Shown here: one piece after another, positions 51,543-51,773 of the stretch
Layout of the letters: every line of letters starts with the position of its first letter
Numbering within the stretch: position 1 is the stretch's first letter
Origin: Candidatus Versatilivorator sp.
Lineage (GTDB): Bacteria > Acidobacteriota > Terriglobia > Versatilivoradales > Versatilivoraceae
Assembly: GCA_965207735.1 (NCBI GenBank)
Contig: OZ242296.1
Span: 1,888,001-1,952,000 of the forward strand
DNA length: 64,000 nt
Direction of reading: 5' to 3'
The notes under the pieces: generated by a model
What the model was told of the DNA's origin: nothing
The model's database searches: none
Seen by the model: the letters and a program-made list of their open reading frames with translations, nothing else
Program-made: the position numbers and the translations under genes

Positions 51543-51571
51543 CGATTCATCCCCACGCCTGCGGGGAACAG
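51543..51571. CRISPR. Solitary type I-E-like CRISPR repeat (no array)
   Basis: 29-nt CGATTCATCCCCACGCCTGCGGGGAACAG resembles the I-E repeat pattern CGGTT[CT]ATCCCC.C....G.GGGGAACAC. Confidence 0.65.
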
Positions 51572-51594
51572 GACCGTGACCAGTCTTCCCGAAT

Positions 51595-51773
51595 GGCCGA
51601 AGACGGACCATCCCCGGGAGGTGATCGAGGCGGCCTTGGCGCATGTGGTTCGGAACCGTGTCGAGGCAGCCTCTGCCCGCTCCGACCTGTTCGAACGCAA
51701 GCGTGTCCTGACGGACGACTGGGCGCGATACCTGGCCCAGGGGGTCGGGAGAGGACTCCAAGTCACCTCATAG
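51595..51773 (+). pseudogene. Diverged duplicate of the integrase 3' end
   Basis: TDHPREVIEAALAHVVRNRVEAASARSDLFERKRVL..W.RYLAQG matches 50822-50971; catalytic Tyr replaced by Ser. Confidence 0.88.

Follow-up and report, generated by a model that had tools for sequence, protein, structure and literature searches.

A type I-E CRISPR repeat module in P4-like integrase elements of Candidatus Versatilivorator, a probable array remnant beside an integrase attachment core

An integrase element carrying a CRISPR repeat

The repeat considered here lies in a 64,000-nucleotide stretch of a Candidatus Versatilivorator sp. genome, which we refer to as the window; the host genome (G000) is a single contig of 5.26 Mb rated 100% complete. 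It belongs to an element carrying the tyrosine integrase gene int1, which probably begins with an ATG near 49770 and is followed by a multicopy segment (X), the repeat, a spacer-length segment (SP) and a duplicate of the int1 3' end (Table 1). X is fused to the repeat at CG.TT microhomology, and X copies without the repeat read on as CGTTTG. The 142-nt int1 3'-end duplicate is the same piece that is found elsewhere after the right ends of elements carrying a sister integrase, int2, and the core at which the int2 ends lie occurs twice in the window, once within int1 (50833) and once as a hybrid with a half-repeat (51604), both of which are empty.

The int1 element starts just after a GCTG..GCCGC core which is also present in an Acido-Lenti-1-like dispersed repeat. 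We note that int1-family elements begin at this core of the RF01687 repeat in the window and at 15 other sites in the genome, that RF01687 matches lie in the window at 58210 and 63829, and that a search for right ends matching the int1-family left junctions found none. The target of this family therefore looks like a dispersed repeat and not a tRNA gene, as judged from these junctions. Further upstream, the window also holds a long run of 102-nt coding repeats (28500–32400, 26 copies), which are ankyrin-like by period alone.

Table 1. Coordinates of the features around the repeat in the window.
Feature	Position	Strand	Remarks
Left junction of the int1 element	49607..49622	+	16 such junction matches in the genome
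int1, P4-like tyrosine integrase ORF	49719..51056	+	Arm-DNA-bind_3, Phage_int_M and Phage_integrase domains
int2 target core in int1, CCGACCATCCCC	50833..50844	+	Codons T-D-H-P; empty in the window
X, multicopy element segment of ~450 bp	51089..51542		Holds a decayed minus-strand reading frame
Type I-E CRISPR repeat, 29-mer	51543..51571	- (crRNA-sense strand)	2 mismatches to the array repeat of the genus
SP, 32-nt spacer-length segment	51572..51603	-	Common to all copies of the module
Duplicate of the int1 3' end	51601..51742	+	91% identity to 50830–50971
Hybrid of half-repeat and int2 attachment core, CGGACCATCCCC	51604..51615	+	Empty in the window
Second X-family copy, inverted	53590..54170		Beyond low-complexity cargo

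The repeat, its copies and the cas genes

A sequence-only reading of the window had described a 29-mer followed after 32 nt by CGGACCATCCCCG at 51604, with a 61-nt period, and had placed the 29-mer 37 nt past its copy A. Both descriptions were borne out (the inverted-repeat arm, 51438–51506, ends 37 nt before the 29-mer), as was the reported hairpin, but this is stronger on the minus strand, with seven pairs including one G-U (-12.4 kcal/mol, z -2.34, equalled by 4/200 shuffles), than on the plus strand (-8.9 kcal/mol, 17/200 shuffles as good). The second motif had been taken for both a repeat half and part of the integrase duplicate and it is indeed both, sharing 11/13 bases with the start of the array repeat, though the duplicate starts at 51601 and not near 51595.

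The proposed comparison with array repeats placed the 29-mer two mismatches from the repeat of the 61-nt-period arrays in two members of the genus, G004 and G005. G004 has 76 matches to the repeat and its array adjoins Cas3, Cse1 and Cas7e, and in the loci of five relatives 105 of 107 spacers between adjacent repeats are 32 nt long. A degenerate pattern of the repeat matched 15 of 41 genomes, 12 of which belong to the genus (G000 counted), and in the window none of the CRISPR families of Rfam attained its cut-off. Judged by these sequence comparisons, the 29-mer is a real type I-E CRISPR repeat of the genus.

The repeat is solitary, as had been claimed, within the window and not in the genome, where we found 14 matches at up to seven mismatches. 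A multicopy REP had been named as one finding that would refute that reading, and while the motif is multicopy, its copies belong to a mobile element: 12 of the 14 represent one module of repeat, 32 nt and half-repeat in P4-like integrase elements. Eight have X, repeat and SP as in the window, two have X and repeat with other DNA behind, two have repeat and SP with an insert in front, and the remaining two flank an ankyrin gene. SP was found in 10/14 genomes of the genus vs 0/17 other genomes of the family and always within the module, and records with the module belong to Ca. Versatilivorator, Versatilivoraceae or Acidobacteriota. The two-repeat form (X, repeat, insert, repeat, SP) occurs once each in G000 and G008, a perfect array repeat lies directly against SP at G000 position 4586584, and in 6/34 module copies the join of SP to int lies 30 nt further upstream. 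When we scanned the GTDB collection for hybrids of repeat end, 32 nt and core, we obtained 46 stretches, six of which are the module or mini-array of this genus and the others ordinary arrays with core-starting repeats or chance matches, and the single viral match was without a repeat. DNA contigs confirm the module variants, with no int2-filled end among the loose ends listed.

The sequence-only reading saw no cas genes in the window, which is correct, and there are none in the whole genome either. The genome search that it had called for found no type I-E cas genes in G000: profile searches gave no match to Cas1, Cas6e, Cas7e, Cse1 or Cas3, tblastn with the 22 reading frames of the G004 operon gave 0 matches vs 4 in the G002 control, and no periodic array was found. 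It should be noted that the Cas6e, Cas7e and Cse1 profile searches were positive in only 1/14 control genomes (Cas1 in 7/14), so that the absence of cas genes rests mainly on Cas1 and on the tblastn with the G004 operon. With one full repeat and a half in a host without cas genes, the module does not have the make-up of a functional array. Cas7e was found in 4/14 genomes of the genus, and three of these four carry the module.

The CRISPR-cas block of G004 (~21 kb, C1:3184000-3205100, beside a UPF0102 gene) is absent from G000, where the flanks of the missing block join directly (C1:4136477-4136480), and G008 has a cas-less replacement at the orthologous place. G004 also has a lone repeat with a DUF29 gene behind it, just upstream of cas3 (L011:13996-14816), which might be a remnant or else a crRNA-like unit with a regulatory role. 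The genus has a second type I-E system (L085:8167-10696 in G002 and L087:17629-18450 in G011), with a related repeat that begins GGTCCATCCCC or GGTCTATCCCC and is also near the int2 core.

The int2 integrase and its attachment core

Int1 and int2 share the three Pfam domains and are 56% identical. We found left ends of int2 14 times, in 8/14 genomes, and of the 13 that could be read, six interrupt int coding sequence at the T-D-H-P codons and a seventh is in a decayed int fragment. Two come directly after the SP of a module (G005 L041 and G003 L045), one lies in a mini-array and three are elsewhere. We distinguished 12 right ends by similarity, nine of which lead into a displaced int 3' piece as in the window. 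The ends lie at a core, C(G/C)GA(C/T)CATCCCC, mostly in int genes, and in 9/11 pairs of left and right ends, the pairing being our own, the two cores match at both variable positions. The module carries this core as CGGACCATCCCC, which is empty here and filled in G005 and G003, and in G005 it leads into the int2 left end instead of the int piece; a core common to both int2 ends that is found in empty and filled states is what an attachment site provides. This agreement would fit a putative overlap of ~7 bp, CGGACCA, between GGGGA-like and TCCCC arms, and this GGGGA-N7-TCCCC arrangement is perfect in G011 and partial elsewhere (3/5 in the window).

The HGFR and C-terminal His/Tyr motifs have catalytic roles in tyrosine recombinases. 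In int1 the int2 target core sits between them, and an int2 insertion is predicted to part the HGFR motif of its target from the C-terminal His and Tyr and so to inactivate it. Int2 itself keeps the HGFR and H/Y motifs, and as each of the 12 int2 genes that were read encodes T-D-A-P-H and is without the core, int2 would not hit its own gene. Two other explanations of the split genes were rejected: integration of the SSV type, with attP in the element's own int, because the int2 genes are without the core, and self-splitting by int1, because int1 left ends lie at a different core. A metagenome search for int2 returned mostly distant integrases.

Integrases of helper-embedded satellites are described as targeting prophage late genes (PMC10111431), and int2 resembles them, as they are presented there, in belonging to a clade of integrases directed at a gene of some other mobile element, with occasional off-target sites. 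It differs from them in that it is directed at the catalytic region of a sister integrase with 56% identity and that CRISPR repeats are among its off-targets. Int2 represents a clade of P4-like integrases that insert mainly into sister integrase genes, at the catalytic region, and spare their own gene, and their core is one base from the end of a type I-E repeat. In the literature that we consulted, which included few subscription papers, no P4-type integrase was reported to use integrase genes as well as type I-E repeats, and a search of the same reach found no paper in which the genus is named.

The array repeat of the genus begins CGGTTCATCCCC and is one base off the int2 core (T for A at position 4), and three junctions on the core are derived from CRISPR sequence: the module of the window, a mini-array in G011 and a repeat in G008. 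The G011 mini-array (L054) begins with a worn repeat and 32 nt, after which come a repeat, a different 32 nt, the core and then int2, in exact 61-nt register, and since the far end of this int2 element runs into an int piece, the empty form would look like the module of the window. In G008, CGGACCATCCCC and the remainder of a repeat follow directly on an int2-like right end, and G004 has the orthologous repeat in intact form, its flank being 90.6% identical over 2.1 kb. At this junction 15/20 adjacent bases match an int2 right end, as do 8/200,000 random 20-mers, but the end is short, with about 17–20 nt plus an inverted 27-nt piece, which counts against the int2 reading. The cas operon is missing from the G008 locus with the int2-like scar in its first repeat. 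Both CRISPR-side spacers ahead of a used core end in RRGA vs 3/143 array spacers.

CRISPR repeats do not appear to be the primary attB, as 7/13 int2 left ends lie in int sequence. In G000 alone there are 333 cores with one mismatch, as well as 13 exact ones that no element end adjoins, and the live array in G005 is without int2 though that genome has two int2 copies. As int2 targets, CRISPR repeats look incidental from these distributions, and the counts so far fit incidental rather than selected use of arrays.

The streptococcal phage PhiAP1.1 is reported to insert itself into type II-A CRISPR repeats of Streptococcus pyogenes through 8 bp of identity, and its integration and excision to delete spacers and carry off repeat–spacer units (bioRxiv 10.1101/2020.10.09.333658). 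Int2 is like PhiAP1.1, as characterised in that account, in being a site-specific integrase with a short core common to the repeat, while the window differs in having a type I-E repeat on a small P4-like integrase island, and the repeat looks like a secondary target of int2 with one mismatch, the main target being a sister integrase gene. Array-targeting Tn7-like transposons are also mobile elements found inside CRISPR arrays, and are described as inserting by transposition in the spacer area and leaving the repeats whole (PMC11837452); the tyrosine-integrase core considered here, unlike the insertion described there, splits the repeat. In the int2 clade we see a precise and testable case of conflict between elements spilling into CRISPR arrays, shown earlier for the streptococcal phage and a type II-A repeat. 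Array repeats in records from Holophagae and Acanthopleuribacter (L226-L266) begin with the exact int2 core CGGATCATCCCC, and these arrays would be perfect targets if int2 reached them.

Origin of the module and the question of an RNA function

We consider it fairly probable that the module is a decaying piece of a type I-E array whose right end was likely made by int2 at a CRISPR repeat, and which is predicted to serve as an empty landing site and probably has no RNA function. One option of the sequence-only reading, that an array had recombined with an integrase gene at CATCCCC and left a scar, is supported and can be made more precise, CATCCCC being part of the int2 attachment core. In the course of events that we envisage, int2 would have crossed over in an array repeat, preferring repeats after spacers ending in purine-purine-G-A, and recombination with an int2 junction in an int1 gene would then have swapped the remaining array for the int1 3' end. 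A separate microhomology deletion could have fused the left repeat to X, and the composite would have spread with int1 elements, with any inner insert lost through recombination between repeats. Two findings speak against parts of this: int2 does not account for the X–repeat junction, and the founding int2 insertion of the module is without a matching right end, as the paired right end in G005 enters other DNA.

The same scrap of array might instead have been joined to the int 3' end by a microhomology deletion, with the rebuilt int-type target used by int2 later, and this, although we think it unlikely, stays a real rival because of the likeness of the window SP to int, the joins 30 nt upstream and the short G008 end. 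The likeness of the window SP to the int sequence immediately upstream of the core has a score of 23, reached by 1/210 real spacers and 8/5000 shuffles, and plain microhomology could therefore have made the join; the commoner form of SP has an int resemblance at the null level (46/210). The matching region covers about 17 imperfect bases across the spacer end and CATCCCCG, in which the spacer end AAGA plus CGG corresponds to GAGA plus CGG of int, the A at position 4 of the core is the int base, and the X–repeat join is itself of the microhomology type. Against it, the three separate junctions with CRISPR sequence are all located on a single integrase core, and one of them has an int2 right end inside an orthologous repeat. 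Non-CRISPR hybrids at the core also end in GGGGA, AAGGA or TGGGA, which is nearer to an inverted TCCCC than to int coding sequence.

An extension of the preferred reading, in which int2 made the right end of an array remnant, would give the integrase itself a role in conflict. In this extension int2 would be a dual-purpose weapon whose one core serves both to inactivate rival integrases, which lose their catalytic C-terminus, and to break type I-E arrays, helping to erase CRISPR-Cas in this sponge-associated genus. We regard it as doubtful; if true, the unit of repeat, spacer and core would be a portable landing pad or decoy spread across species by int1 elements.

The sequence-only reading had also suggested a Racr-like decoy, and we considered more broadly whether the module could be a functional CRISPR-mimic RNA, either a Racr soaking up Cas6/Cas7 or a guide repressing a host promoter. 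The module is on a mobile element away from cas genes and of the same subtype as the host genus, the window copy keeps a full stem, the minus-strand order of half-repeat, spacer and full repeat is the layout of a single crRNA, and the module is present in most of the Cas7e-bearing genomes. If such an RNA were maintained, its stem should be kept by selection, and of this we found no sign. We aligned 34 distinct module copies and dropped three that were partial or chimeric (L018, L030 and L074), and in the 31 that were left the differences from the majority per site were 0.080 for the repeat, 0.056 and 0.092 for the X segments and 0.072 for SP, i.e. the repeat decays like its flanks. Stem changes were one-sided in 38 cases and two-sided, as compensation requires, in none, and stems are intact in 10/31 copies vs the 42% expected in a neutral simulation, although these counts are not independent events as the copies share ancestry. 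All 34 rows give the same result (0.076 for the repeat and 10/34 intact stems).

Candidate Racrs are reported to have been chosen for a promoter within 250 bp and dropped if partial repeats lay within 100 bp (PMC10651486). The window module is like these RNA anti-CRISPRs and solitary repeat units, as that source defines them, in being a single full repeat of the host subtype on a mobile element away from cas. It is unlike them in having a partial repeat 61 nt away, with two-repeat forms elsewhere, in having no promoter match, with 0 matches to a sigma-70-type consensus in 51000–52500 and so none within ~250 bp upstream in this search for the sigma-70 type, and in having a decaying stem in a host without cas genes. 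The minus-strand upstream DNA beyond the int piece also has nothing in common among the ten copies compared. Two sponge metatranscriptomes share 4–8% of the words of the stretch, as contigs, and are uninformative on expression.

As a guide, SP fared no better. The suggested search for the 32-mer in phages and other mobile elements gave only chance-level matches (E 3–9) in phages and plasmids, the two-variant pattern of SP had no exact match in viral contigs, and in 31 genomes of the family all 26 matches were module copies with no protospacer; a search with 107 array spacers gave just two matches, at 3–4 mismatches. Against the cas regions of four genomes SP gave nothing above the control level, the best match being a single one of 10 nt outside the G005 operon (12/143 control guides reach at least 10), using a PAM set taken from E. 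coli-type systems which is assumed rather than measured here. Degenerate repeat, spacer and full repeat as one unit on a mobile element is also the arrangement described for CreA, CreR and Cracr (bioRxiv 10.1101/2023.03.03.530964; 10.1101/2024.10.29.618823), but unlike these, as described there, the window unit has no PAM-flanked match of at least 9–10 nt to a cas or toxin promoter under the assumed PAM set, and its conservation is not above background. A weak self-match in the middle of a host gene at 2197355 has a 16-nt seed and an AGG flank, and as such a seed is reached by 35/286 control guides, and with the assumed PAM set by 1/286, we treat it as a weak lead.

As an RNA anti-CRISPR the module is unlikely because of the flank-rate decay, the lack of a promoter match and the complete genome without cas genes, this genome being the richest in copies and having no arrays either. 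The wider notion of a CRISPR-mimic RNA is accordingly very improbable, with a small chance kept because of the mid-gene self-match and the intact stem of the window copy. We regard this locus as a worked example of a false RNA anti-CRISPR candidate, in which a lone and well-folded repeat is exposed as array scrap by comparison at the level of copies.

Finally, SP could be worn-out integrase sequence with a coincidental 61-nt spacing and a lone repeat added later, as the alignment of the window SP to int upstream of the core and its loosely int-like frame (SIPEW vs SFRDW, read from the sequence) might suggest, but this is extremely unlikely when the commoner SP scores at the null level, another 32-mer in G011 keeps the 61-nt register, and SP is abutted by the perfect array repeat at 4586584.

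Gene-size DNA was also seen between full repeats of the genus. The insert of the two-repeat module at G000:C1:1110574-1110947 is 316 nt long and holds a complete ORF of 71 aa (no Pfam family), and that of G008 (L021:7729-8199) is 76% identical, in the opposite orientation and with 97 extra bases; no further good copy was found in the 14 genomes of the genus, with a partial one at G000 4586613. This points to independent events in which DNA of gene size was captured between repeats. Long spacers are reported to be mostly transposons (PMC4524480), and the 4436-nt insert in G004, which consists of two DDE transposase genes, is ordinary in this respect. Further gene-size inserts between full type I-E repeats are found at L012:12699-13606, L017:10209-11762 and L020:7989-11972, and DUF29-like genes lie between full repeats in both orientations in G004, G013 and G008. 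G013 also has a 173-nt insert between repeats, apparently with a short membrane-protein ORF (read by eye), and in G000 a 1416-nt ankyrin gene lies between full type I-E repeats (C1:3860777-3862250).
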